NCBI GenBank assembly: GCA_965140935.1
Contig: CBCSLL010000157.1
Coordinates: 105,559-161,415 of the forward strand
Direction of reading: 5' to 3'
Origin: Rotaria magnacalcarata
Taxonomy: Eukaryota
DNA length: 55,857 nt
Shown here: positions 852 through 47,534 of the stretch, one piece after another
Layout of the letters: each line of letters starts with the position of its first letter
How positions within the stretch are numbered: the first letter of the stretch is position 1
Made by a program: the position numbers and the translations under genes
Notes under the pieces: model-generated
Told to the model about the DNA's origin: nothing
Database searches by the model: none
The model's input: only the letters and a program-made list of their open reading frames with translations

Positions 852-3295
852 TCAAGTTGTTTTCCATTTCATACGGACTACATGTCTTTCTGATCTTTTA
901 CGCGCTGGGTCATCTTCTGGAAAAAGTTTTGCCCGAATTTTCCATGCTTTCTCAAAATATTCTAAAGCAAGTTGATTCTCGTCCATCGCTTCATATTTAT
1001 GTCCTGCACTACTGAAACTTATTGCAAGATCAGAATGATCAAAGGGCAATACTCGTTCACGCATTTTTAACGCTTGCAAACGCAGTTCTAGGGCTTTCAC
1101 TTTTTCTCCTTTCACACTGAGAACGGTAGAGATACTATTAAGAGTAGTAGCAATTGCTGGATGATCCGAAGGAAAGCACTTTTTTTTCATAGCTAGTGCC
1201 AGATGATAATGATTGAAGGCTTTTTCATGTTGAATTTTAGTCTGATAGACATCAGCAATATTATGAAGAACATTAGCGATATTAGAATGATCTTCGGGTA
1301 AACATGCTTCATAAATTTGCAAAAGACGAAAGAAAAAAATTGAATGCTTTTTCACTATCTTTGGTCATTAGATGAACGATGCCGATTGAATTTACAGTTT
1401 CACCAATGTGAACATGAATTTTAGGTAAACAAACTCGCTTGGTATTCAATGCTTGTTCATAATAATGGAGTGCTTCACGATACTTGCGTAGTCCTCGATA
1501 GCACGATCCAATATTATGCAGGCAATGTGCCATTTCGAGTTGACGCAAACCATTTAACTCTTCCAATATTTGTTTTGCTCTATTACAGTACTTAAGCGCT
1601 TCTTCATATTGACCTTGCTCAACTAAAACATGACTCATGTTAAGTAATATATTTGTGGATTCTCGAAGCAAAGATGGATGAGATTTTCTCATCAGTTGAT
1701 AGGCTACATCAAAAGGATGCATAGCTTGCTCATATTCAGCATTGGTCTGACATACTAGGCCAAGTTGATTATGGATTTATGCAAGATTTTCATTTCCAGG
1801 ATCTCTTAATAATTGTTGAAAAGAAGTTTGAGCTGCCTGATAGTGACCCATCCGAGTCAATAGTGATCCAAATCATATTGATACACTATTTCCTTGCATT
1901 TCACTCTTTGTTTCTTCAATATACTGTCTAGCTATTTCTTGTCCTTCACCTGTTACACTTAATGAAATTTTCCACACATCATCTTCTTCAGTAACCGATT
2001 GAACTTTAAAAACGGTACCCAAGTCGAATAATACTTCTTGCTCGTCAGGAAAATTACTGAAATTTGTTATATCGGCAAAGACAGAAGAATTTTCCTCTTC
2101 GTTTCAACATTCAATCTCAAATAGTACTGGAACAGAGTCAGATTGATTTTTATCCTTTATAGCAAAATTAATCGCTATGGAACGTGAACGACTTGTGGAT
2201 AAATAACCATTAATGGAAATGAGTTTACCCTCATTGGATCGAAATTCTTCAAGTTCAACCAATGTTAATCGTACACCACGATAGACAGTTGTGAATATTT
2301 CATTATCAGTCTCCACCATCATTTTATTGTGTTCCCGTGCCAAGGTCAACGACAGATCCGCAATAAAGAAGCGAAAAGTATACAGCTGTTGAATATCTTC
2401 TGTACGCAGTGCTTTATTTAACATTTTATAGACAAAAGTCTCTCGTGTATACCACTGAATGCAATCTTCACTTGTATAAGAATTTTCAAATTCATCAATT
2501 GATTTTAATGCCCTTTCATTCCCTTGATGATAATTGCGACATGCATGAATCATTTGTTTTTGGCTTTAGGATTTGAAGGAAGCGAAACAATAACATTGTT
2601 ACATAATTGAAACCTATGAATACAAAGAACAGTATATAAAATCCAATGAAAATAACTATTTTATCAGGATTTTTTAATTGTCTATCCGTTGTATTAAGAG
2701 GTTCTACAAACTCTTTTATTTCACAAAGCTGCTAATGATGAGAGTCCTTTATTTTACGCAAAGTTTATTGCTTTAAAATTGAATTTTGATAAATCGCGAA
2801 AAAGATTCTTACCAAAGAAATTCTGCTGCGCGTTCTGATACATTGATCGAAATTTTCTGTTTTTGATTATAGAAACTGAATGTTTCCACTTGTTTATTGA
2901 GTAAACGAAGTTTTTTTTACAAAGGTTTGCGTCTAGCTCTATTCTATCAGTGAATATGCCAGATATCTTGGAAAATCTTTCCATCAAGTCTAAATTTTCT
3001 TCACGCCATGTACAATATATGAATACTGATTCGAGTTGTTTTAAATCAATAATAGGAGGTAACAAAATTGTACCCATATTTCTGAAGTACTCAAAAAACT
3101 TTTTTCGCCAGTGACTGATTTAATGTATGAAATGCATTCTTCTATGTTATTGTAAACGAGAACATAATCATTGATCTCACGTAAAGTCTTCATTCTATCT
3201 GCCATCGAATTCATCTCACCAATTTTTGAATCAAACCAAATCAGGGTAATATTCTCCTTATTCGTTTCTGATGATCGATCACATAGTGGTGCCAT
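852..3295 (-). pseudogene. Disrupted gene with an N-terminal domain of unknown function, then a mono-ADP-ribosyltransferase (R-S-EXE type) domain, then kinesin-light-chain-like TPR repeats. It carries in-frame stops and frameshifts.
   Basis: ORFs 3041..3295, 2754..3077, 2104..2553, 1309..1722 and 852..1355 are collinear on the minus strand. The ART motifs are visible in ORF 2104..2553: VYRG (Arg), YLSTS (STS) and FEIEC (EXE). TPR-like 34-aa repeats are in the last two ORFs. The single frame running 2553->1309 contains in-frame stops at 2104-2106 (TGA), 1873-1875 (TGA) and 1777-1779 (TAA). There are frame changes near 3050-3077 and at the A-run 1331-1338. Confidence 0.6.
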
Positions 3296-5113
3296 TTTAT
3301 TTCTTATTCACACAACAATCGTATTTCGACGTGTCACACTTTAACAAATGTCTCTATTGGTGCAAAAACAACATTTGTCTTGTTATTTACACGATTGTTT
3401 AATTTTCTTCCGTCGTCGAGGGAGACATGAAACATATTTGGAAAAAACTAACAGGTGACTGATTTCTTTTTTCGTTCTGTATTCTTTCGAATTCTTTTCA
3501 TGTCGATGGCAGTGCAGATTAATAATAAAGCGTCAGTCTACTTTTAAACAATGCGATAGACAGAATAGTAGAGGGAAAAAGTATAAAATCATAGCCAGTG
3601 AAGATTGAAACGCTATCGATGCTAGACATCTCGAGATGAATTTTGGATCAAAGAAAGGAGACGATATAAATCAGCTGAGTTTTACATGGGATCATCTTTC
3701 ATACGACGGACTAGAGTTCAACTTAGAGGCTGAACTAGTCACTTTGTTTTGTTCTTTGTCCTATCCATTCTCGTTCTCATACGTGTTGTAGTACTACAGT
3801 TCTATAAATACTTGAAACAGTTTATCATATCAAAGTATTCACACGAGATAACCAATTTAGCATTCGTTCATTACTAAGTTTAAACGAAATTATTGACTCA
3901 GGTATTTTATTCTCATGCAGTTTTTAACTCAGTCAGAATGTATATTTACAATTGTTAAAAATAATTAGTTTCTTATTTATGCTATTGGTGTGAATTATCA
4001 ACGTAATAAATGATTGATACTTATTGCGGCATGACCATGAGCTCATGATTTCATACGAGAAGCAATTTATAGATTTAAAAAATAATTACCACTGTATCAA
4101 CAGTATAGCAGTATATTGTTATCAATAGATATTACTATCTGATGTTAGCATCGTATGACTTTCTCACTAATCAATTAAATAATTAACTAGGCAGCTACGC
4201 CATAGGTTATAGTAAAATAATGAAACAGAGTGGACACGAATAATGTCGCCAATAATAAACAGATAGAATCCGAAGGTAATGACTTCGCCACTGGATCCTG
4301 CTAATTTCTAGTAGAAATCTGCAGGAAATACACGTCGTTTTCGGGCGAAAATGCTAGATTCCAAGTGCCTAACATTTTCTGACCGTACCTCATTGATCTA
4401 GGATAGACTTAAAATGAAAGACGACACTAATTGAGGTGTGCATTGTCAGATTCGTTTTTTCTTGGTTATACGGTATTCGCTGAATTTTCTCAAAACGTAG
4501 TTCGATAGTATTGAGAAACTCTTCTCGAAGCTTATGCTATTTTTTGATACATGTCGTCTCTAACGATCTATTGAAGTCAAGATGATTTCGGTTAGTTTCA
4601 TGAAATCATGCTACAAACTTTTCGGAAAAATTCAATTGCGTTGATAATATTTTTGATACCTATGCTGAAAGTCTAGTTTTAAATTCATGAAAAACTATAT
4701 TAATTTCTTTATGTTTTCGATAATTTCACTGAATTCCTTCTTCCAAATTCTGTAGAAACTATTTTCAAAGTTTGATGATGTGTTTAAGTGTTATTGTGCA
4801 TTTAATCAAAGAACACTGAGAACTATCAAAAAACAAAACTTGGCAAATTTCGAAGAACACTTTCTGTCAAACTTTCTATGTTTATCATTTTTTTTTAACT
4901 AGATATTGACTCTAACAAGTATTTCTTCTGACTGAAAGTAACAATCTTATATTGGAATAGTCTTGCTCGAATAAGTAATTATCATGATGTTTTCATTTTC
5001 GAAGTAGTTCATGCAATTCTAGTTTAATGATAGAAATATGCAACAAAAATAACATATGATTTAAAGCATAAAGATTCATCTATCAGCTAAAATAAGTCAG
5101 ATTAACTGTTGTG

Positions 5114-5929
5114 CTAATTTCTATAAGTCAGTTCTGCCAATACCGGCAGATGATCTGAGGGATAATACTTATTATTGGAATCAGCTAAATGTGCATGTCG
5201 TAACACTTCGAAGCGTGATGGTGTAATGAAAATGTAATCTATTCGATCATCTATACCATATTTTACGTCAAAGGTAGACCAAGTGCCATCGGGACCAGAA
5301 TGAGCAGATGCTGTCGAAAGTTTTGCATCTGCGAAGTTTATGCTATTTGTAATTGTATGATAAGCATCTGATTCAGGTTCTGAATTTAAGTCACCAGTCA
5401 AAATTGCACGTGCTGAGTATCCAACTATCTGCTCTATACGAGTTAAGATAAGTTTAGCACTTTCTCGACGAGCTATTAGACCTTTGTGATCAAAATGAGT
5501 ATTGAAATAAAACATTTCTTTGTTCATCAGTCGATCTCTGAGTTTGACCCAGCTGCATATACGTGGCAAAGCTGCATCCCATCCTTTAGTGCCAGGTTTA
5601 TCTGGTGTTTCTGACAACCAAAAAGTACCTTTCTCATTGAGTTCAAAACGATCATGCCGATAAAATATGGCACAGCACTCGCCATTATCTTTCCCATCGT
5701 TTCGACCAACAGCATAAGAACCGTAATTCGATAATCCAGATTTTAAATCTGTCATCTGTTTAGGAAGACATTCTTGAACACCAAGAATATCAGGTAAATA
5801 ATGCTGAATAAGATTAATAACACGGTCTTTACGAAAATACCATTGATTTCGACCATCAATAATAGTATCCAAACGAATATTATAAGTCATTACACGAAAC
5901 GGCCATGTATGTTGCTCGAATGACATCAT
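5114..5929 (-). CDS. Endonuclease/exonuclease/phosphatase (EEP) family hydrolase. Single exon, 271 aa.
   Basis: Uninterrupted ORF. EEP motifs are present: MTYNIR, LGVQEC, FNTHFDH, GDLNS and SDHLPV (C-terminal SDHxPV). There is no intron although neighbouring genes are intron-rich. TAG stop. Confidence 0.8.
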   Translation of the reverse strand: MMSFEQHTWPFRVMTYNIRLDTIIDGRNQWYFRKDRVINLIQHYLPDILGVQECLPKQMTDLKSGLSNYGSYAVGRNDGKDNGECCAIFYRHDRFELNEKGTFWLSETPDKPGTKGWDAALPRICSWVKLRDRLMNKEMFYFNTHFDHKGLIARRESAKLILTRIEQIVGYSARAILTGDLNSEPESDAYHTITNSINFADAKLSTASAHSGPDGTWSTFDVKYGIDDRIDYIFITPSRFEVLRHAHLADSNNKYYPSDHLPVLAELTYRN

Positions 5930-7791
5930 CTGAGAAAATATAATATGAATGAAAAGAATTTCTTATTTAAATCGTAAATAACGACCAATGATATGTTAAA
6001 TTATTTAGTTTAAGAAGACAAAATTGAGTTTCGAATAAAAAATGAAAATAGAAACAAATACAGTAACCCCTTCAATAAAACTTTGTTGATTTATCTATTT
6101 TGAGTAAGTTAGTCACACAAGAAGAGTCTCTATTAGTCGAATATAACAGAGTACTTCATAGAAAACCAAAATTTACAAAGCGACAGTTTTCATTAAGATC
6201 TATCGCCATCTATATTTTAAAAATTATATAGCCGTAGTATAATTATTGTCATTCAGTCAGACGATATCTATATTAGGATCAAAGTGTTTTTTAATACATC
6301 AGAGTAATGATCGAAATTTATGGAATTTAAATTCTTTCATAAAAAAAATAATGTCCTATTCATCATTTTTCGAATAAAATTAATTTTACTATATCAGCGA
6401 GTTAACTTTAGCATGTTAGCCTCGTGTTCATATTACATTTCATGTTCATTGAATTGTAGTAAGTCAGAAACGACAAGATTCCCATTATACATTAATAAGA
6501 GTCTGTTCAGCAAGCAAAAATTGAATCAAATCTTTTAGTCATATGTGAGAATTTTGTGTCGATTTCTAATCAACTATGAATAGTAAAGTCTAAAAACAGT
6601 GCCCAGACATTAGGTAAGTGATAAGATATATATATAACAAGGAATTTATGATGTGCGTGAACACTTGCATATCCTAGTTTTCAAATACGGAAGGTATTGA
6701 ATTTTCATTTTTCGTTTTCGGATTTTTTCACCAAACAAAATGAGTTACAGTCTGAAAGCAGCGAAAATCTGTTAAAACTAGGTGTAAATATCTCACACTC
6801 TTCCGTGAACACATTTTCGTCTTTGCATATGTATTTAAGTTTGAATAGGTTTAATAAAATATTTAAAAAATTAGTTCTTAGCGTCTGAACAACTAATGTA
6901 GTTTGAATGTAGCATTGATCATCTCATTTAGGAAGATAGTGCTGATAAATATAATCTGCGCACTATCATATTAGTTAACATGTTCGAAAATTTACTTCGA
7001 AAGAAGCATTCATATCTAGTTTGACTTCAATAAAAGCATACAACAATCAGTAATTAAAATATGAAAAGAAACTGGAGAAAAAAGTGCATCTATGCACATA
7101 TTCCCTATATCAGAAATTCCTATTTTTAGTTTTAACTCAGTTTTTCGACACATAAATGCCTAAGATATTCGAAGATAGGTTTTACTTCTACGCTCGATCA
7201 ACGATTTCGCCGAAAAGTATACTATACATAAATTATTATAGATTCGAGCAGCAGAAATTTCGCAACCTTGCTTCAATTGACATCACTGCGGATGAGATGT
7301 CTGAGTAGGATCTACAAAAGTCAATAAATACCAATCTATTCAATTTTCTCTCATGGTGTACTTTTAATCTTTTTTTCATAATGATACGAAATTGTTAGCT
7401 CTCACCACTGAATCGAAATATTCATACTCGTTTAGATCTCATAGATTCAGTGCATGTTAGAGATTTAGCTATTTTACACTGCAATGATAAATTTTTACGT
7501 CTTTTCTAGAATTCCCTATGATTATCTTTAAGATTCTACAAAGAAATGATGCTGAGCTATTATTATTATCTTTGGTTCGTATAAAATTCCTGATGTTTTT
7601 CGTACGAAAGTAGCGTTTTACCGCTGATTTCATCACATCTCAAGCAATTATTTACTAGACAACGTCATACGAGTAAATATCCAAACTTGAGTTTATGAGA
7701 TATGGTCATAGATTATACCGCGCTCTTTGGTATGCTAGGAGTTACAATGGGTTTGTCCTACTAATATTTTTAGCATGTTTAGGAAATCTTT

Positions 7792-8320
7792 TTGTGTACT
7801 CAAAAAAAAATGAGTACACTATAGAATCGGTCAGTGTGTCCGTCCGGCCGGCCGTTTACACGATAACTCCGGAAAGGCTGATCAGATTGTCATGAAATTT
7901 TGTAGACAGCATTATCTCATCTATGTCTCAGTCGAGTTCGAAGATGAGAAGGATCCGTCAAGAAATGGCTGAGTTATCGAAAAAATTGTCATTTTTGACT
8001 ATACCATCCCTGAGGGGGAGTACAGGGATTTTTCAAAACAAAAATTTCTCTCAGAATTATCCACAACATATATAAATCGACTCAGTTTTTAACGCTGATT
8101 CCGAATCTGATACTAGTTTTGAACAAAATCGTAGCTTTCTAACGAAACATCGCCTGAAAAAGGTCTCAAAATGCACAAAAACTGAATTCAGAAACCAAAT
8201 TGCCTAGTTTCTCATGATAATTTTGGTGTTCAGACATTCTAGAATGACTCACATATCCCATGCACTTTTTGCAGTACACATAACTCTCGGATGAAATCCG
8301 AAGTTTCCACATTTATTTAT
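7792..8320 (-). repeat. Copy 2 (inverted, full length) of the roughly 535-bp interspersed repeat family.
   Basis: It is the reverse complement of 31082-31617 along its whole length. The hairpin end lies at 7792-7816 and the other terminus at 8307-8320 (ccacatttatttat). Confidence 0.75.
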
Positions 8321-8761
8321 TGTTAGATTTATGACGCACCTGCCAGTTAGTCCTTTTAGGTTACAATGCGAAAATATCTGGAAAACATATGAACCATTAA
8401 ACTCACCATTGCTTTTCTCCTCCTTGCTTTCGCGCACAGAAGATCTTCGAAAAAAATAAAAAATCTTCTCGTATGCTGCTTATTACTATTTTTTTGATCA
8501 ACCATCCAGGAAATTCATAAAAAGCCCATATCAAGAACTGGGACACAGAAGTTTCGTATACTTTGGAAGAAATAAAGTAGGCACCAATGCACCATCATAA
8601 ATGAAGTCTTTCTAATAGGATTAGGGTACTATGTAACGGTGCTATATTCTTACTCAAGTAACAAGCTTCCAATTCTGTATTTAGTACCCTCATAGAATTT
8701 TATTCAAATTAATAAACTTGAAAACAGTTCTGTCAAAATTTTACAATAGCGGTTCGTCAAT

Positions 8762-10019
<1,258 letters not shown>

Positions 10020-10087
10020 TTTTGTTGTATGCGATTTCTTTGTTGACGAAGCGAAGTTGAAAATAAAATAAGAGTGTAATAGCTACA

Positions 10088-10098
10088 TTTTTATATAT
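10088..10098 (-). promoter_or_regulatory. Candidate TATA box (tatataaaa on the minus strand), roughly 70 nt upstream of the cathepsin ATG.
   Basis: Sequence motif only. Position is relative to the start codon at 10017-10019. Confidence 0.25.
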
Positions 10099-11224
10099 CA
10101 TTGCACTAGATTAATATGATAAGACATTTATTTTCATATCACTTACGAAAAGAAAAAATATCACCGCTCACTTGCAACAACAAGGAAAAAAAACGAAGTT
10201 CTTATCTTTTGTAAACGCTGCGCGACATATATTCAATTTTAAACGTTGCGACGCAAAAAAATCTTTCACACAGTATAACAGTACATAACAATTTTAAGAA
10301 AGTACAACTAACTGTAACAATATCAATACCAAGAGTGCGTCGCTATCCGTATTTCACATCCAAAAAATACTATTTCTTTTTCTTATGATTAGTAATTACT
10401 ATAGTTTTGTTTCATCTAATATTTGGAAATTAAGTCATTCAAATCATTGAGTTCTTAAACACTTTTTATTCTTGCAAAGTGAAAAAAATTTAGGAAAGGT
10501 TGACCTTGGCGAATTCTGTACAGATTTCGTTCAAGACAAAATAATTTGGCTTGTAATATTACTCGACTAAGTTGATGCATACAATAAATTAAAAGCTAAA
10601 GAAATTGTCAGAGTATAAATACGAGCTTACATAAATAACTATACAGCGAACTTCTTCTATGCTTTTTGTTTTGTTATCTATGTGCTAGAAAAATGACCAA
10701 GTGTATTTCATGTTATTCGGTAGCAACTCTTTATCTCTTGTAATCTGTCATATCATTATTACATGCATTCATGTAGAGAAGAGAAGATGATAACATTGAA
10801 CATGAATCAAATTAAGTAAAAAAATCATAAGAGACAATCAGTTACTTTAGTATGACTGGAAAAATAACTATTATTTTCAAAGAGTTCTCATGTAAATGTA
10901 GATTTTCATGAAGTAAACTGAGTATCTAATGATACAAATAAAAACATTGATCTGAGTCAAAATTTAACTTTTTTTCTATTTGATTTAACATATTACAATT
11001 GAAAATAAAGATCTATGTCATCAAGTAACTATTTTATTTATAATTTAAAAGGAATTTACTGTTAATGATAGAAACTTTTTGACCTATACTCTGTATGATA
11101 TTTATTCAATTTTTTGGATTCAAAAAAATGTAACTTATTTTAGTAGCTTCCATGACTAAGATAAAAAATTAATTATAAAAAAAGACAATTGTTTATCGTA
11201 TCAATTACTTATGGAATCAATAAG

Positions 11225-13100
<1,876 letters not shown>

Positions 13101-15222: not shown

Positions 15223-15229
15223 TTACGAA

Positions 15230-15318
15230 TCCGAACTCCCAGATTTGAACTGGGGACCTATAGGTTACTATGATTACTCCATTACAGCCTACCGCTCTGC
15301 CAGCTGAGCTAAGTTCGG
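15230..15318 (-). tRNA. tRNA-Tyr (anticodon GUA) with an intron of about 15 nt immediately 3' of the anticodon.
   Basis: Minus-strand sequence is CCGAACT-TA-GCTC-AGCTGGCA-GAGC-G-GTAGG-CTGTAAT-[intron GGAGTAATCATAGTAA]-CCTAT-AGGTC-CCCAG-TTCAAAT-CTGGG-AGTTCGG-A. It has a 7-bp acceptor stem, D- and T-arms and a TTCAAAT T-loop. The discriminator is A. A canonical eukaryotic tRNA-Tyr intron lies 1 nt 3' of the anticodon. Confidence 0.8.
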
Positions 15319-16244
15319 ATGTTGAAACAAAGTTAAAAAATACAGCAAACGATTATTTTATGTACGAACATATCAGTCAATTCAATAATTTAGCATAAAT
15401 ACATTTTCACTTCAACTTACTTTTCAGAGTGTTTGGTCTATTGGAAAAAATATCACTTTTTTTAAATTTCAAACAAGGAGTAGAAACAAGATATTTATAG
15501 TAAGAAAAAGCGTCTACGAAAAACTTTATTTGATGAAAAAAAAATCAATAGACTATAATCTATCGCATGAAGAAGATTTTTTTAAAAGAAAATTAGCAGC
15601 ACATCGTTTTTTCAACGACTATAAAAGAATATTCGAATATGAAGAAAGATTAATTTTTGATGAGAATAACAATAATTAAGATAATTGAAATAAGAATATT
15701 TCTACAAAAAATATAAGAAATGTTTCTTTTTATTTCTTGAGTTGTTTTAGCTAGTTTGTGATAAACGAGGAAGGCGCATTGGACCGAAATTTGAACCAAA
15801 ATGACGTCCATGTTTTGCATATCTTCGTCTATATCCTTCGACTAGTAAACCTAAGAGCTATAAGAAATACAAAAATGAAATATTTTTAGTTCTTTGAAAG
15901 TTAAATTTACTTTATTTCTGTTGGTTATGATCAAATAACTAACGATAATACATAAAGTAAAAGCAAGAAAGCTAGTCATAAATCGTTTCGACGAATTATC
16001 ATCACCATCACGATTTAGATTTGTTCTTGCTCCTCATAAAAAAAGTAAAAAATATTAAAATAAATAATTCATTGGAAAAGAAAAGTTAAATCAAAATTTA
16101 TCAACGATTAATTCGACTATTGTTTTCTTCATCACTGGCGCTCAGTAGATTGATATTCTTTAAAAGTGTGATATTTTCTTACTAGAAACGTAGATTTGGA
16201 CAGTATACTCTTTTCACACTAAATGTTTTTGGTTTTTTACATCC

Positions 16245-20970: not shown

Positions 20971-22498
20971 ACTGCTGAACATGTTCCTAAAAATATATTT
21001 CATTGATATTTATTTAGATCAACAGGAGCCAGAAGAGGAAAATAGTGACGGCTGGTGTGAGTCGATCTTTATGCAAAAAAATGAATAAAATTTACTAAAG
21101 ATAAACTAATATTACATTAGTGTGACAAGTGTTCGTTAAATTACACAAAACTGTATTCATCAGTGGGAAATGTCTACCAGATATTCCATTCAGTGTAGTC
21201 ACACGTAAAACATTTTCAGTGTAAGCTTTGAAAGAGGCAGGGCAACATTTAAGCAGCAACATTATAAATGACATTTAATTACAAAGAACTTCCAAAATAT
21301 GTGATCATTTTTTATTTGATTTCCATTGAATATACATAAAATAGACAGAACCATCATAAATGAAAAACTGTATTTTGTACTCGTTCTAATTTGTGACTCT
21401 GATGCAGAAGTACAAAATCTACCCGTGTGCGCCTACGCGCGTAGGGGGAAATTTTAGGAAAATTATTGGCTGTAGCGAAGTTTTTTAATATGGAGAATGG
21501 GGAAAATTTCTGAAGAATTTTTTTGTATAAGGGGAAATTTTTCATTTTTATAGCAGATTCTGCACCTCTGCTCTGATGGTATACTAGGATCTAAAATAAA
21601 AACTCTGCATAGCGAACTAATGGAAGATCACATTTTGTTTCAGATATTTGATAAAATATCATAAGATCTATACTATTGTTGATTCGACATTATAGTAATC
21701 AGATTCTTAATATTTGAAGTAACAAAAATCAGAGACAAAATCGGTTTATTGTGATTTATTTTCTCTGATTGACGAGTTCAGGCTATCCTTATGGGAGTCT
21801 CAATTAAGATAGGATTGCGTGTTGGTTCAAATGAAAAATTTTCTGAGTTTTTACGATTATTTAGTAGTATTGACACAAAAAGCGTAAGCATATGAAGGCA
21901 ATAAGAAAGAACGTGCAAGTGTTCTTTGTCTTTATATTTTCGTGGAAAAAAAGCAGGAAGAAAAAGAAATAAAAAAATTCTCTTTTTTATACGCTATATG
22001 TAAGTCTGTATGCATCACACGTTTCTTTATTATTGTCGATGATGGGAGTTTATTTTTTGAAGTCGCACAGAAATTAAAAAAAGCACGTAAATACATACAT
22101 GAAATCGAATAAAAAAATACAACTTTTTTGTTTTTGGTTACATTTAAAATTTGACTGTTTGAATTATTGAGAAAAATTATTTATATCTCTTTAATTTGGT
22201 AAACGCTCTTTTTAAGACTCATCAATGAAAAATATATAGTGAATTAAATATTACAAATAAATTTTCGACATGCTTGGTACTTTAGCGATTCATCATGAGT
22301 TTCTTATTATTCTTTGTAAAAAAATTGAGTTTTTAATCAATTATTACTTCATTTTTATCTAGGAAGAAGCATGACATATATAGCTATTCGTTTTCTATTG
22401 CAGATAACTTTTCATTTTAGATGAAAAAAATTATTTTATTTATTCAAGTACAATTGTAATCATAAATACAGCTGCAACGTACGTCACACATTAAAAAG

Positions 22499-25087
22499 AT
22501 GCTTCATGGGAGTGCATCATATTTCATGGGCTGTAGTGATCCGCGCTGTCCAAAACATTCTGGATTACAACAAAAACTTGAGTTGCAACTTCAATATTCG
22601 GATAGAAAACATGACATAGAATTGCAAGTAAACGTTGATAGTTCACCAAAGATTACCATTTGTGATATTATAAAAGAACTTTTAAATTTTCTTTATCTCG
22701 ATGATATTTCTCCAGAAGAAGTTCGCTTGGTTGGAGTTAAGAATAAAAATAAGTACTTTAAGTTGAATGTGACAGATATACAGAAAACACTACGAGAGTT
22801 ACACGTGACCACTGATTGCATACTTCATTTCGAGCCAACATCTACTGCGTCCGCACCTAAACCATGTCAGTTGACGATATTTGGACCAGATGAGAAAGAA
22901 AAAAAAATATTTCAATGGTACAGAGCAAAAACAACATTGGCAATACTTCTCGAATATGTTATCGAAATATTTTCATTGCAGTCAATTGATCGTCATCAAC
23001 TTCATCTATTTACTATCTGTGATGAACTTGACTTGTTCTCTTGTTCTACAAGACGATTGATTGAATTAGGCGTTAATGACCGAATGGCAATTTATGTTCA
23101 GATCGTCTCATCGAGTTCATTGATGATCACCAATGAAAACATAGATGTTCATGTTGAATATGGTGATGAACATGAAAAATCAACTATCAACGTACGAAAT
23201 ACCGAAACGATGGGTGAATTAAAAATTCAAATTCAAAAACGGTATGAAGGTTATCGTATTAGTGAGTTCGAATGTTTCAATGAAAGAAAAGATTTGCTCG
23301 CTTCCGTTGATACGGATAAAAGTTTTAAATCCTTGGGTATTAAACCTGGTCAAAAGGTTTTTGTAAAAGTTCGTTTGACTTCTGAGAAAAATCAACTAGC
23401 TACTGCAAATGCTCAAAACAAAGCGTCTAATCAATCAGATTCGCCGTCAAGTACAAAAGCGAATTCTGACAAAGTTATTGTCAAATGGATCTTTCCAATG
23501 AAAAATTCCGAAAAGACAGAAGTATCACTTCAACATACAGTTAATCAACTAATTAAAAAACTAGAGGCCTTGGAACAGAACAATCGATTAGTTTTACATA
23601 AATTATCTTCAGATGTAGTAGAATTCGTCGTTACAAAAAGCAAGGAAACACATCGATCTTTGGCGGACTTAGGATTCAAATCAAATGATACGATTGATGC
23701 CACTATAAAAGTTAGGTCTCCTAAATACTCATCTATTGTCAGTAAAGAATCCCCTCCGTCACTCAGAGCAAATAAAATCCCAAAAGTTGATTGTATCACC
23801 AAAAGTCCAATAGGTTTGAACAATCTTGGAAATACGTGCTACATGAACAGTGCAATTCAATGTCTTGCTCATATACCACCATTAACTAATTTCTTTTTGG
23901 AAGGCTTTCATTATACTCACATGAACGATGGTGAACATACAGATGAGGATTGGAATCCATTTGATAAGATAGGCAGTGTCACTGGAGCATATGCTGATCT
24001 GCTTTGGAATTTGTGGAAACACGATGATAATGATCATGACTATGCTTCGTTTAAACCAATTCGTATTAAAGATACAATTGGCAATAAAGAATTACGATTT
24101 TCCACAAATGATCAACAGGATGCTCAAGAATTCATGACTTACTTTCTCGATGCTATACACAAGGAATTAAAAGAAAAAAATGACAACTCTAAATATACCA
24201 TAATAAAACAATTATTTTTCGGAGAAATAAAATCTATTATAAGATGTACTACATGCAATAATGATGAATCTACAATAAGTCCTGTTAGTTTTTTGTCCAT
24301 ACCACTCAATCGACAAGAACGAAAATTTTGGATTACTTATATTTCAAAATTAGGAAAGGATGAAACTGTCTGCGTCGATGTACCTATTAGTGGACATGTT
24401 GGACATGTTGTAGAAGAATTTGTTAAATATTATAAACAACCTGCACTCTTCTACCACATACTTGCTTTGGTACCAGATGGTGAACTCGATTTTGGAACAC
24501 CACTTAATCAATTATCTCATGATGAAATTATATTAATGGAGCAAGAAGAGCGTTCAAACAATAAACGACCTGAGAATTTGGAAATACCCGCCGAAAAATT
24601 AACTCTTCAAGATTGTCTAAAAGATTTTTTCTCACCAGAACATTTAGAAGCTGAATGGACTTGTCGACGAGCAACATGTAAAAAAAAGACGACAGCAACT
24701 AAACAACTTGAACTTTACAAGCTTCCACCTATAATCGTTATTCAATTCAAACGGTTTTCGCATGAAAATGGTTTACATCAAAAAATTGAAACGTTTGTAA
24801 AATATCCGATAAACGAACTAAATTTAAATGCATTTTCAACAGCTGGCCAACAAGAAACTGTTTATGATTTAATTGCAACTAGTAATCATATTGGATCGAT
24901 ATATGCAGGTCATTATATAGCATATGCTATGCATCGCATGTCGAATAAAAGTGAATGGTACAGGTTCGATGATTCGTGTGTAACACGTGTAAAACTTGAA
25001 GATTTGGAACAGGATATTGTATCGCAAGATGCTTATCTTTTGTTTTATATTAAAAGAGATATTCTAAATCCATTAGTAACAGTATAA
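22499..25087 (+). CDS. Ubiquitin carboxyl-terminal hydrolase (USP, peptidase C19), 862 aa, intronless. The N-terminal half contains about four UBL-like segments of roughly 90 aa each.
   Basis: Single ORF. Cys box GLNNLGNTCYMNSAIQCL. His box HYIAYAMHR...WYRFDDSCV. USP zinc-ribbon cysteines CTTCNN...CRRATCKKK. QDAQEF motif. TAA stop. Confidence 0.85.
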   Translation: MLHGSASYFMGCSDPRCPKHSGLQQKLELQLQYSDRKHDIELQVNVDSSPKITICDIIKELLNFLYLDDISPEEVRLVGVKNKNKYFKLNVTDIQKTLRELHVTTDCILHFEPTSTASAPKPCQLTIFGPDEKEKKIFQWYRAKTTLAILLEYVIEIFSLQSIDRHQLHLFTICDELDLFSCSTRRLIELGVNDRMAIYVQIVSSSSLMITNENIDVHVEYGDEHEKSTINVRNTETMGELKIQIQKRYEGYRISEFECFNERKDLLASVDTDKSFKSLGIKPGQKVFVKVRLTSEKNQLATANAQNKASNQSDSPSSTKANSDKVIVKWIFPMKNSEKTEVSLQHTVNQLIKKLEALEQNNRLVLHKLSSDVVEFVVTKSKETHRSLADLGFKSNDTIDATIKVRSPKYSSIVSKESPPSLRANKIPKVDCITKSPIGLNNLGNTCYMNSAIQCLAHIPPLTNFFLEGFHYTHMNDGEHTDEDWNPFDKIGSVTGAYADLLWNLWKHDDNDHDYASFKPIRIKDTIGNKELRFSTNDQQDAQEFMTYFLDAIHKELKEKNDNSKYTIIKQLFFGEIKSIIRCTTCNNDESTISPVSFLSIPLNRQERKFWITYISKLGKDETVCVDVPISGHVGHVVEEFVKYYKQPALFYHILALVPDGELDFGTPLNQLSHDEIILMEQEERSNNKRPENLEIPAEKLTLQDCLKDFFSPEHLEAEWTCRRATCKKKTTATKQLELYKLPPIIVIQFKRFSHENGLHQKIETFVKYPINELNLNAFSTAGQQETVYDLIATSNHIGSIYAGHYIAYAMHRMSNKSEWYRFDDSCVTRVKLEDLEQDIVSQDAYLLFYIKRDILNPLVTV

Positions 25088-40247: not shown

Positions 40248-43200
40248 TTAGTCGACTACATGACGATCTGTCAGATCACCAATCAAACCTTGACCAAATC
40301 CGATAAGATTGATGGGATTTCTGCCATCAGTAACAAGCATTGATTGTAGACCAAGAGCTTGCAAAAGTTTGACTTGAGTCTCAGGACCTGACATAGCGAT
40401 ACTTTGAATAGTCGAAGCGCCAATTGATTCAACTTGTAATTTGAATTTTTCAGTTTCTATTTGAGACAACGCTGCTTTTTTTCTTATCTCTAATTCATTC
40501 TGTTCGCGTAGAAATTTGATTTCATTTTCATGTGCTAATTTCAAACGAGTCGATTCGGCTTCAGCTTCGATTGTAATTGTTTTAGCTTTGAGACAAGCTA
40601 AAATTTATAGAAAAAACAGAATGATTTTTCATAATTGAGACTCAACAATTCTATACCTAGTTCAACGGCTGCTATGCCTTCAATACGTTTCGATTCAGCA
40701 CGACTAAAAGCTTCTGCTTTGCTTTGACCAGCCGATTCGACCACCGCTGATTGAGCTTTTAATTCAAGTAGTTGTTATCGAATCTCTTCCGCTTCTGCTT
40801 CATCTTTGATACGCTGTCTTTCTAAAACTCCTTTCGCTTCTTGTTCACGACGTGAAGCTTCGTGCTGAGCAGCAGCTTCTTGCGAATTTGTTGTTATCTA
40901 AAATAGAAAACGTTGTTCGTATTTGAATCAGAACAAAAATTGAATGTCATACTTCAATAGCAAGTTGCACACTTTTCTGTAATGCATCACGTGTATGTTG
41001 ATCGACAGGTTCAACACTTTGAATATCGATCGACGTAATGGCAAGGTTATTTTGTGGAAAAATTATTCGATCACATACACATTGATGTGCGTCAAGACCG
41101 AATACAGATTCACGAATGATGTGTGCGGAATTCTTGTGAAAATTATCAAAGTGAGTACCAGCTACTGCACCACGAATACGCGAAGCGATTGCTTTGCATG
41201 TATCTCCAACAAAATCGGGTACAGAAAAAAGCTTTGCCACTTCTTTCTCATCGTTTATATCTTTCACTTCAAAGTGCCAATCTAGGAAATACAGAATAAT
41301 CAATGATACATAGATATATATTTGTGTGCATTTGCTATGCTTTGACTTACTATAGGCAAGTTTAATCGAGAGACGAGCATGATCGGCTGTCTCAATGACG
41401 ATGATATCAGTGAAAAAATTCGGGCCGAGCAGTAAACAAAGGGAGTTTACTTGATTTGGTTTTTTGGGTATACCACCACTTAAAGAGATCATTGTAAAAT
41501 GTTCATCAGGTTCAAGCAACACAAGTTCTGGACCGAAGACAATACGCGTTTTTTTCACTTTGTAATCATAGATTTGTACGGCTGCATTATGTGGAACACG
41601 ATAAGTGATCAATCGCCATTTGTCACGTTTAATCGCATTTGATTTCGAACTATTCAATTGACTATCAGAAGTGGCAAGCATTGTTGACACATTGCTCATC
41701 GAAGTTGAGTCACGCATCGCAGAATAACGATCAGTCAATGGATCACGCGTTAGTAAATATTCGATCTTTTCGGGTAATTCTTTTTTCCAAAGTTCTTCAT
41801 CTTCTGTTAACATATAGGTTACACCAATGATTGATTGAACTCGACCAGTTTTAATATTACGAACATATATGCCTTCGTTTTCATCTAGTGGAATTGCTTT
41901 TGGTCGAGTAATAACTTCCACTTGAGTAGGTGGAATATATTCACTAAGTGTTCAAATAAAAACATCGATTTATTGAAAATAGCATTTAATAAAAATAAAA
42001 TTAACATACATAGGTCCTCGAACAATCCATCGATCACCTGCGACACGTACTTTTTTTGCGTGTTCGTCATTGAATGTTTCATTGCATTTAATGGTAATAC
42101 CTTCGTCTTCACCCAAAACAAACACATTTTGAATACCATTCAAAAGTTTTTCACCTGGTTGAAGAAAGAAAGATGATTCGCCACAGATCATTTTCTACGC
42201 GAAGAAAAAATACATATTATTTTATAGTTATTTAGTTCATAAAGAAAAGTATTTACTTTTTGCCCGAGTTGTGATTTACCATTAATCGATGGATCCATAA
42301 TAATGCAATATTCTCGTGAATTGAGTATGATTGGATCGACATCAGCAATGAGTTCTTCGTATACATTGAGGATATGTGACTCGGCATCAATATGTGTCAC
42401 AAGCCATTCTTCTCCATTCAAACGCATTTTACCGAAATCATCAGTAAAAGTTTTAAGAGCCCTAAGATGAAGTGCTTTCTTATCGGTTAATGCATAGGCT
42501 TTGTGAATCAATACAACTGTTTCCTATCGAATCAAAATAGTAGATCGGTAACAAGAAAAGCAAGAGACGAGACAATTTACATAGGCAAGCGGTAAGTAAG
42601 CGCCGGCCTTTTTGATTAACCACTCTTCTCCTGTGACACGAAGTTGGTTTGATCGATCAATAAGTTCTTTTTTTGCACGAAGTCGAATCGCTTGATTTGG
42701 ACCAATAATAGTTGCTTGAATTTGTTCTTCCACATTGATTTCTTTTCGAGGAATATAAGTAGCTGGACCTTCGAACATCCATTCATCACCGGCTCTTCGT
42801 CGTTCTTTATGAGAATCCTCAAAATCAAGTACAGCTTTTAATCGCAGTGCTGCATTAGCTGGAACAATAGTAATTGCTGTAACAGGCTATACATACGAGT
42901 TTATAATAGCAAATAGTGTATTTGAAAATTTTAAACCTGACGAAGAATCTCTCCTGGATAAAGAGGAAATGGAGTTTGATCAGGTCGTGATAGATGAATC
43001 TCGAAATCGGCATGAGCCAATTTCACTTGACCATTCTGGTCAAATTCAACTTCACCATCTTTGCTGCGTACCACTGGTGATTCGACAATACAATAATGCA
43101 ACAGGCTACAACCATGAAAGCAATATTTTACTTTTATTTTCTCATTTTTAAAATAGTCAGTCACTCACGGAATGATGATCATTTTCTCTGGACCCATCGT

Positions 43201-43362
43201 AACTGTTTCATTGTCTTGCTTAATAAAAGTCTTCGGTCCGACTTCAAGACGTGTAACATTGGTGTTCTGATCTAATACATGTATATAATGACAAGGTGGG
43301 ATTCGATAAACAGGTTCTGCGGTATCTTTTTGGCTAGTCGTTTCTGATGAAACTAAGCTCAT
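40248..43362 (-). CDS. MVP: Major vault protein (MVP), 9 exons, about 868 codons. Approximate exons: 43169-43362, 42937-43105, 42581-42886, 42257-42523, 42010-42194, 41351-41943, 40953-41281, 40657-40897 and 40248-40598. Exon 8 contains an in-frame TAA at 40775-40777.
   Basis: Strong collinear similarity to vertebrate MVP from N to C terminus. Examples are [188 protein letters not shown] and the C-terminal ...[17 protein letters not shown]. Introns are 50-69 bp. The TAA aligns to a Lys codon of human MVP (RKELLELEA). Confidence 0.85.
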
Positions 43363-43886: not shown

Positions 43887-46493
43887 CAGTCGTTGTAAAA
43901 TATTAGACTACAGAACATGGTTACAATTATATTGCTACGAGAAAAAGTTGCGTCTCAATGCTATGGAGATACATAGTATGTCAAACAAGAAGTTGCTCTA
44001 CAATAATACATCGTAATTATATGCTCTGTTTGCAATGTTACAGAGTCGTATCATATCATATCAAAAGGAATATAATGAAAGTGAATCTACTCAGATTCTA
44101 TATTCGACTAGGCTGTTAAAGAGAATCTCAATTTCATTTTATGCATTCATTCATGCTAAAATACACCTAGAACCTTATGATTCGTATTGTACTACACGTT
44201 GAGCCTGTTTGAGTTTAAAATCGTTTTCCAAATTACAAGAGATCATCCAAACCATCTTTTGTATGTAAAATTATTTAATAGTATTTATCTTGAGCAAGTC
44301 TTTTTGTTTTGAATCAAATACAAGCAAACTATTATAGAGGAAGATTCAAAGATGATCACAATATCTCTTTCAATTAGTTTTTGTTAGCAGTCCACCTATT
44401 CAAAATGTTTAAGTAAAAACTGCAACAATGCACTCATCATGAAAATAATGTACTCAAAATGTCAATTAATTAAATAATTAAAACGATTTTTCGTGAAGAT
44501 CTTTAAAAACAGTCAATTATTCTAGAAAATATAACTGAAAAATATTCAACGAGACGAAAGAACTTCTTAAAGAACTGAATCTATTACTGATGTTACTGAA
44601 TAGCAATGATGACACAATCTTTCTAATCAATTAAATTAAAATAGTGTCCACAGAATCTATCATGTATCTTGATCATGAAAAACAATTACGAAGATAATAT
44701 CGCTTCGAAATTATCACTCATACAATTTCTTGTTTTAATTAAAATCATCGAAGAATTTATGATATAAATTTTTATTGTCTATAACAAAGTACATTCTCCA
44801 TAGCAATGCTCTAGCAATGATTCTATCTTTCTTTTTATTTTTCAATCGATTCGTGAATGAAAAATGACACATTTTGTTTTTGATTCTTTTAGTTATATCC
44901 ATTGACACATACATTTTAGAAAATGGAAAAGTCTCTTTGAAATGCTTAAAACTAGTGATGTACATATTGTAGAATATGATAATAATCATCTTCTCGTAGT
45001 GCAAAAATGAGCAATAATATAAGATAAACTGGAAATCGATCACCAAGTCATATTGATCTGATATTACTAAAAATATAGCAGTTGTTTTTCTAACCATACT
45101 TTTCAGTCAGTATTTCCTTTCAATTCTAGCAATGTAACTATGCATCTATTCTAATAAGATCCGTAGGGAATTATGAGTAATTTTCATGCAGTGTTCATCC
45201 TCTTCAAAGCGATATACTGTAACAGCATGTGAATTTGCAGCATCTATTCAAGATATACAAGCATCATCCACATTGATAAGACAAAAACTTGATTAATTAG
45301 TTGAAGATTTTAGTTCAGCTATCGCAAAGCAAAATACTATTGAAGACTTAAGATATCATGATAAAATGTATATTTGAATTTATGGTATTTCTAAAGCAGT
45401 AATAAATGTACTTAATTAAATCAACGTACATGAATGATCAAGATATTATAATTTACTCGTCGTATTGGTATCTACAAGGTTTTCTGTTGCTGATATCACT
45501 AAAAATGTATAAAATACTCGTTGATTCGAAATACATCGGGATTCAATGCTAAATACAGCTAATATTCCTTGAAATGACTTACAAGATCAGGAATTATATC
45601 GAGATAATAAGCAAAACTCGTCAATAACCAAACCTACTCATAAATTTAAACTACGAGATAATAATGTTGCTATGGTCAGAAAAAATAAGAATTTACTCTG
45701 TTATAATAAAAACAATTTTCATGTACTGTCATTTTTTATTGGTAGAAAGAAAAAAGTTTTCACGCACTTATTGATTGATAGCAATGAGCTTTGAGTATGT
45801 TTATTAGAGTGCTCTCCATCTTTAACGTATAATCTACAGGCTATCATGTTTTTTATTCGTTAATTTTAAGAAAAATCATATTTTATAAAGACTAAAGTTA
45901 TAGAAAGTGATGTCTAATAGAAATATTTCACTGTTCGAGTTGACACATTTTTTAAACGTTAATTTCAATCAGTTAAAATAGTTTCTTTTCGGTGTGTATT
46001 TGTTCGAGCAATTTTATAATATAAAATGTGGCATAGATAACTCATTAAATAGCAGCAATCATTTCATATGGATGTGGATGTACGTAGATGGCTCTTCTTT
46101 CGAGTCACATCGACACTCACACCCGCATCCTATAAAGCTTATCTCTTATCTAAGTGAATTATTGCTCAACTAAATAGAAGTCTATTTTTTCCACTAAAAA
46201 ACTGAGTGAATCCTAATTTAAGGTTTTATTTTAAAGAAAGCCAAACAATAGTTACAAATGTTTTATATCTTTACTGGAGTCTTATCTAATTATTTATAGT
46301 AACAAATAGACACAAATGTTGTCTTTCTTTTCTTCTTTTTTATCAAGCTTGATAACCATCGAATAACCAATGTAAACATTCTTTCCTTTACATATTATGA
46401 AATAATTTAAGTATGTTATACATTTGAAAGTATCATATTCGCTTTTGATCTACTCCAAGTTGTTGCAAAAGTCGCACACGAAATAAAATCTTT

Positions 46494-47534
46494 TTGAAAA
46501 ATAACATACAGACAATCATGGCAAACGAAGAGAATATCTTGCCTACACAAATAATAGTAGGTGTAGTTGGTATAGGACTCATGGGCTCTAGTATTACTAC
46601 TTGTCTCTTAATAGCTGGTCATCAAGTTATAGCAGTCGCTCCAATTCCAATCGATCTTGAAACTGCTGAAACTCGTATTCATGAACATCTCGTTCGATCA
46701 TTTGAACAAGAAATATGTTTAGAAAAGCCAGTTTATTACTTAAAAAATTTGACTATTACCGAAGATTATAATTGTCTTAAAGATACTTCCTTAGTTATTG
46801 AATGTACTCTTGAAGATATTACAATCAAAAAACAAGTGTATAAAAATATTGAAAATGTCGTATCGAATGAAACTATCATTACAAGTAATACATCAGCCAT
46901 TCCCATTAGTCTTCTGCAAGAAGAGGCTTGTATACCGAGTCGATTTTTTGGATTACACTGGGCTGAGCCATCTCATACAACACGATTTTTAGAAATTATT
47001 TGTGGTAACAAAAGTGATCAGCAGAAAGCTGAATGGTTATATCAACTTTCACATCATTGGGCTAAAGAACCAACACTCGTAAGAAAAGATATTCGTGGCT
47101 TTATCACCAATCGTCTTATGTATGCTTTATATCGAGAAGCGTTTTATCTAGTCGAAAATGGATATGCTACTGTTGATGATGTTGATCGAGCATGTCGCAA
47201 TAATGCTGGTTATTGGATGACATTTGTTGGTTGCTTTCGATGGATGGATCTTACAGGTATTCCAGCTTATCATGCTGTTATGCGAGATTTATTGCCTACG
47301 CTTTATAATGAAACTGAGATACCGAAACTTATTGATGATATTGTTAAAACAGGTGGAAAAGGTATTCTAAATGGTAATGGTTTCTATAATTATACACCAG
47401 AAGAGGCTCGTTTATGGCGTGAAACTTTTGAAGAGTTTAGTTATGATATTCGACGATTAGCATTGAAATATCCTGTTGATGTTGTCACTAGGAAATTGAA
47501 TGCCCTAGAGAAAAAAAATGAAACTCAAGATTAA
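46494..47534 (+). CDS. 3-hydroxyacyl-CoA dehydrogenase family protein (3-hydroxybutyryl-CoA dehydrogenase-like). Intronless, 346 aa.
   Basis: Rossmann motif VGVVGIGLMGSSI. ITSNTSAI corresponds to the family ILASNTSS. GLHWAEPSHTTRFLEIICG matches GMHFFNP..KLVEV. GFITNRLM matches PGFVVNR. The C-terminal GKGILNGNGFYNY matches GKGFYDY. TAA stop. Confidence 0.8.
   Translation: MKNNIQTIMANEENILPTQIIVGVVGIGLMGSSITTCLLIAGHQVIAVAPIPIDLETAETRIHEHLVRSFEQEICLEKPVYYLKNLTITEDYNCLKDTSLVIECTLEDITIKKQVYKNIENVVSNETIITSNTSAIPISLLQEEACIPSRFFGLHWAEPSHTTRFLEIICGNKSDQQKAEWLYQLSHHWAKEPTLVRKDIRGFITNRLMYALYREAFYLVENGYATVDDVDRACRNNAGYWMTFVGCFRWMDLTGIPAYHAVMRDLLPTLYNETEIPKLIDDIVKTGGKGILNGNGFYNYTPEEARLWRETFEEFSYDIRRLALKYPVDVVTRKLNALEKKNETQD

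Follow-up and report, generated by a model that had tools for sequence, protein, structure and literature searches.

A nine-exon vault protein gene on the minus strand

The window (the whole 55,857-nt stretch of Rotaria magnacalcarata DNA that was analysed) carries a gene for the major vault protein (MVP) on its minus strand (40248..43362). The model, which we rebuilt from stop-free stretches and splice signals, runs from 43362 to 40248 and comprises nine exons (exon 1, 43362-43169; exon 2, 43105-42937; exon 3, 42886-42581; exon 4, 42523-42257; exon 5, 42194-42010; exon 6, 41943-41351; exon 7, 41281-40953; exon 8, 40897-40657; exon 9, 40597-40248), giving a CDS of 2634 nt, or 877 codons plus a terminal TAA. 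The eight introns are all GT..AG, measure 50-69 nt each and are all intact in the window haplotype. Pfam returned Vault, Vault_2, Vault_3, Vault_4 and MVP_shoulder (residues 547-665), every score lying over its cut-off, and rat MVP is collinear with the product across residues 14-869 (E=0), with the cap helix and cap ring regions encoded in the DNA. The best protein matches were 'Major vault protein' models of this same bdelloid rotifer. An earlier reading of the sequence alone had proposed an MVP gene with nine conserved exons; the rebuilt model, the Pfam domains and the rat alignment all bear this out. A tblastn search found no second MVP copy or fragment elsewhere in the window.

The surrounding DNA encodes products of other kinds. 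Pfam matches for the neighbours (855-12103, minus strand, and 46449-47531, plus strand) comprise a TPR protein, a weak ART-like match, an endonuclease/exonuclease/phosphatase, a papain-family protease, a carboxylesterase and a 3-hydroxyacyl-CoA dehydrogenase. At 22466-25084 on the plus strand, 873 codons run without a stop and include a ubiquitin C-terminal hydrolase (UCH/USP) domain; such a length without an intron is unusual for this genome, the MVP introns coming every 170-600 nt. The only tRNA gene in the window (15229-15319, minus strand; ARAGORN and Rfam) is an ordinary tRNA-Leu with anticodon TAA, not a suppressor.

In a neighbour-joining tree, the gene groups with those of R. sordida, Silwood-1 and Silwood-2 in an 'A-type' clade, whose sister group comprises all other Adineta and Rotaria MVPs. 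Departures from highly conserved MVP columns number 11-18 in A-type proteins and about one in the main B-type. The public models of R. magnacalcarata are intact for both its B-type (880 aa) and C-type (893 aa) paralogs, while protein-level searches of the annotated models of the sister species R. socialis found no A-type MVP. Silwood-2 carries a second, convergent MVP gene about 2.2 kb downstream of its A-type ortholog (locus 8320-9090); the corresponding place in the R. magnacalcarata locus holds unrelated genes (a 148-aa product and others).

An in-frame TAA in exon 8 of every sampled assembly

The CDS has one internal stop, a TAA at codon 722 (40775..40777, minus strand) in the 241-nt exon 8, where the minus strand reads GAA GAG ATT CGA TAA CAA CTA CTT GAA (EEIR*QLLE). 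The other 876 codons are intact in the window haplotype. The sequence-only reading had reported an in-frame TAA within this exon, and we recovered exactly the same coordinates for both. The stop falls 57 residues into the cap helix (the Pfam shoulder ends at residue 665) and 118 nt upstream of the last exon-exon junction. It cuts off 155 residues, among them the cap ring and the larger part of the cap helix, and the 155 codons downstream of it are free of further lesions in the window haplotype. The predicted loss of the C-terminal part of the cap helix thus stands, with the figure of about 170 lost residues reduced to 155 by the rebuilt model. [quoted passage not shown]

To recover the DNA of exon 8 in the orthologs, we threaded their proteins onto their own contigs. 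The exon is an unbroken 241 nt in R. sordida, in R. sp. Silwood-2 and in the C-type paralog of R. magnacalcarata. At the site of the stop, the codon is CAA (Gln) in both orthologs and AAG (Lys) in the paralog; among 117 other MVPs the column holds K in 84, R in 29 and Q in 4. In rat MVP, the residue aligned opposite the stop is the Lys of ARKELLEL (Lys704 in the 4hl8 register), confirming that vertebrates have lysine here. The A-to-T change in an AAA codon that had been deduced from that lysine has to be replaced: since the orthologs have CAA, the stop arose by a C-to-T transition in that codon.

The locus was then retrieved from seven other R. magnacalcarata assemblies, including Rg_MAG2, Rg_MAG3 and Rg_RM15 (Nowell et al. 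2021, PMC7943196) and GCA_965120345.2. Some assemblies are the reference and 'maxhap' versions of one individual, so that the eight sequences, window included, represent about five or six independent individuals. Up to 36 differences separate them over 9.1 kb (haplotype divergence about 0.3 %), yet the identical TAA is present in 8/8, on at least three haplotypes, and the uninterrupted frame through the cap helix that is expected of an MVP is therefore broken at codon 722 in all of them. Base-call or assembly error, one of four causes originally offered for the stop, is excluded because eight sequences from at least three haplotypes agree on TAA. No copy with an intact codon was found in the 90 %-identity protein cluster, whose full-length models all skip the stop, and none of three truncated (721-aa type) and three Gln-restored products had an exact match in the protein collection. 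At the level of assembly sequences, the lesion is apparently fixed and is unlikely to be a rare allele; another of the four proposed causes, a nonsense allele, is disfavoured in that the stop does not behave as segregating and an intact copy is absent from the public protein cluster.

One of the retrieved loci is itself incomplete. A run of N at about 4965-5396 of the GCA_905332135.1 locus (window 41398-40968) marks a scaffold gap over intron 6, the last part of exon 6 and almost the whole of exon 7, and the public model CAF3822938.1 has only 715 aa because of this gap.

Long-term constraint, recent damage and a probable young pseudogene

Comparison with the two orthologs returned dN/dS values of 0.16-0.17 (about 0.17) for the gene and of 0.14 between the orthologs themselves; upstream of the stop, the long-term values are 0.15-0.16. 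In Tajima relative-rate tests over the whole gene, the R. magnacalcarata branch carried 65 changes vs 53 (chi-square 1.2) and 63 vs 43 (chi-square 3.8), an excess that is marginal at most. Given these values, the gene was under constraint for nearly all of its history, and the stop is recent. We also considered relaxation limited to the region beyond the stop, where pairwise dN/dS is 0.23-0.24 vs 0.10; the relative-rate counts downstream of the stop are symmetric (15 vs 15 and 15 vs 12), meaning that the elevation is not lineage-specific, and this option was rejected.

Within the species, the exonic variants number four non-synonymous and three synonymous, which are small counts. Each of the four non-synonymous variants precedes the stop and alters a column that is conserved in at least 97 % of the 117 other MVPs. 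At codon 388 (41902, minus strand), the window has Pro and the RM-type haplotype Gln, where 114/117 other MVPs, the orthologs included, have Arg. The remaining three, all in exon 6 and on the minus strand, are R507H (41545; R in 117/117), G511D (41533; G in 117/117) and M516L (41519; M in 116/117). In addition, the first base of the intron-2 donor (42936, minus strand) is G in the window and C (GT>CT) in two independent assemblies, Rg_MAG2 and GCA_965120345.2; if intron 2 were retained, a stop would follow after one extra codon. Two public models of 853 aa, one of them CAF1307566.1, work around this donor change. Residue 245 of CAF1307566.1 (residue 250 of the 877-residue protein; KTFIDDFG) is Ile, against Thr in the other models; Ile is likewise found in the orthologs and may be an ancestral state kept in one haplotype.

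Taken together, the four changes at conserved columns and the donor loss point to relaxed constraint over the whole gene, both upstream and downstream of the stop, although the numbers are small. The gene had been described as otherwise intact, and this is accurate for the window haplotype; other haplotypes carry the intron-2 donor mutation and changes at invariant residues.

Our preferred interpretation, to which we assign a probability of roughly 0.8, is that the A-type MVP copy is a young, unprocessed pseudogene or null copy, that is, a recently dead duplicate masked in the annotation by a spurious intron. A C-to-T change turned the Gln codon 722 (CAA) into the TAA now carried by every sampled genome, and translation would halt 57 residues into the cap helix, dropping the last 155 residues. 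Vault function would then be carried by the other MVP paralogs, those with intact public models, and gene predictors would hide the lesion through an invented 57-nt intron. We infer from this that the copy has lost its function and is not translated past the stop. Among the four causes first listed, a degenerating duplicate is thus the one we favour. The intactness of the rest of the window haplotype limits this reading, but is expected of a young pseudogene too at a divergence of about 0.3 %. Transcript-derived fragments were absent from the protein collection, in which a query with the C-terminal 241 residues returned nothing above 77 % identity; the 90 %-identity cluster itself consists only of NCBI genome models.

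The distribution of intact and broken copies may have an ecological side. In the desiccation-tolerant bdelloid Adineta vaga, both radiation and rehydration induce MVP genes (PMC10809525), and R. magnacalcarata and R. socialis are obligately aquatic (PMC7943196). The A-type copy is intact in the sampled desiccating Rotaria species and broken in aquatic R. magnacalcarata, and aquatic R. socialis lacks an annotated A-type copy, a pattern that fits relaxed selection on a stress-response paralog, a speculative idea given that it concerns one or two lineages.

Alternative explanations and known counterparts

It is improbable that the TAA is tolerated, either by readthrough of UAA-CAA-CUA, which could restore the Gln, or by recruitment of the 57-nt stretch as a new intron. 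If either were true, a nonsense mutation would have been caught mid-rescue in an asexual animal.

For the first of these routes, a leaky stop would yield some full-length MVP, making the gene a hypomorph or a regulated readthrough gene. The residue inserted at UAA by near-cognate readthrough is often Gln, here the ancestral residue. The 155 downstream codons remain open, and the hexanucleotide CAACTA directly 3′ of the stop (40774-40769, minus strand) is a formal match to the type I readthrough motif CARYYA (PMC3542737, PMC4132726). In plants, this motif can promote readthrough of UAA, UAG and UGA alike, and in human cells it supports about 15 % readthrough with UGA (PMC3542737, PMC4132726); UAA, however, is the stop least responsive to it, readthrough of UAA with CARYYA in human cells being far below that of UGA or UAG (PMC4132726). 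Of the features expected of programmed readthrough, the promoting 3′ context is thus present, while conservation of the stop across species is absent, the orthologs encoding Gln at this codon (CAA). Moreover, CAA-CTA is ordinary Gln-Leu coding sequence that also occurs in a paralog, and the changes at invariant residues and the loss of the upstream donor argue against selection on any product. Lying 118 nt before the last junction, the stop is also a plausible target for nonsense-mediated decay, which counts against readthrough. We regard a leaky stop as quite unlikely.

The second route concerns a 57-nt GT..AG stretch (40756..40812, minus strand) that public models call an intron. The full-length members of the 90 %-identity cluster all read ...GVLERQ|PQSAVVES..., that is, they skip 57 nt including the TAA, and the window gene with these 57 nt removed is identical to CAM4762820.1. 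Were 40812-40756 now a real intron, intronization would have restored the frame, and the mRNA would encode an 858-aa MVP lacking 19 residues of the cap helix. The stretch begins with GT and closes with AG, is divisible by three and falls within the local range of intron sizes, and the source annotation, produced by BRAKER with RNA-seq hints (PMC7943196), gives every assembly the same model. Its signals and composition nevertheless do not resemble those of the other introns of the gene. In position weight matrices derived from 32 real introns, drawn from this gene, two of its orthologs and a paralog, both candidate sites scored below every real one (donor, -0.98 vs 0.78-9.9; acceptor, -0.46 vs 2.46-14.0). 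Among exonic GT..AG decoy pairs of similar length, 48/158 (30 %) scored equal to or above the candidate. The 57 nt are exon-like and purine-rich (A 46 %, T 19 %), whereas real introns are rich in T (42 %). In the orthologs, exon 8 runs uninterrupted and the same GT and AG belong to its coding sequence; the intron is absent from R. sordida, Silwood-2 and the paralog examined. The predicted product would also carry a Pro midway along the long cap helix. As for the shared model, its recurrence in every assembly is not evidence for splicing because a predictor must avoid in-frame stops, and such consistency is deterministic. Real splicing at this site therefore seems very unlikely to us, and the 57-nt intron is most likely a predictor artefact that dodges a real stop, a judgement resting on splice-site scores and ortholog comparison. 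As a correction, at least six public records for this gene, including CAF2070914.1 (UniProt A0A816RDU5), CAF1512624.1, CAF2100944.1, CAF1307566.1, CAF3822938.1 and CAM4762820.1, describe a protein from which 19 cap-helix residues are deleted, probably as a predictor device.

It is just as doubtful that the 721-residue truncated protein, consisting of the repeats, the shoulder and the initial 57 cap-helix residues, is functional in its own right, for instance by modulating how vaults assemble. In the window haplotype the ORF before the stop is intact, and its long-term dN/dS is low, as given above, but that value records history before the stop, and the recent changes, all four non-synonymous variants as well as the donor loss, affect conserved positions upstream of it.

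We give almost no credence to an error of sequencing or assembly, to the chance collapse of a heterozygous allele or to TAA being a sense codon under a non-standard code, as the TAA recurs in separate assemblies and on several haplotypes, while the same gene ends in TAA at a conserved C-terminus and writes Gln as 34 CAA and 7 CAG codons vs one internal TAA. An alternative code or a suppressor tRNA was ruled out by the terminal TAA, these 41 CAA/CAG codons and the only tRNA of the window being Leu(UAA); A-to-I editing of UAA to UGG, also considered, would require two edits.

Three known systems offer points of comparison. As in rat and human MVP (PDB 4V60, 4HL8, 2QZV), the repeat, shoulder, cap-helix and cap-ring regions are all present in this DNA; unlike in rat MVP, the frame is broken opposite Lys704, and unlike both mammalian proteins, the gene is part of a divergent clade of bdelloid paralogs with changes at highly conserved columns. 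With type I (CARYYA) readthrough, as in tobacco mosaic virus, the locus shares CAA-CUA directly after the stop; it differs from the virus in that the stop is UAA and not UAG, and from type I readthrough in that the stop is missing from orthologs and the gene shows no sign of being kept by selection. The third likeness is to an unprocessed pseudogene in which one nonsense mutation has disabled a redundant paralog; with such a gene the A-type copy shares kept introns, membership of a multi-copy family, one disabling stop and, in some haplotypes, further lesions and apparently relaxed constraint, beside paralogs with intact models. It departs from the typical case in being very young, with the rest of the ORF perfect in the window haplotype. 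The A-type copy is ordinary in kind, and its chief use is the annotation correction.
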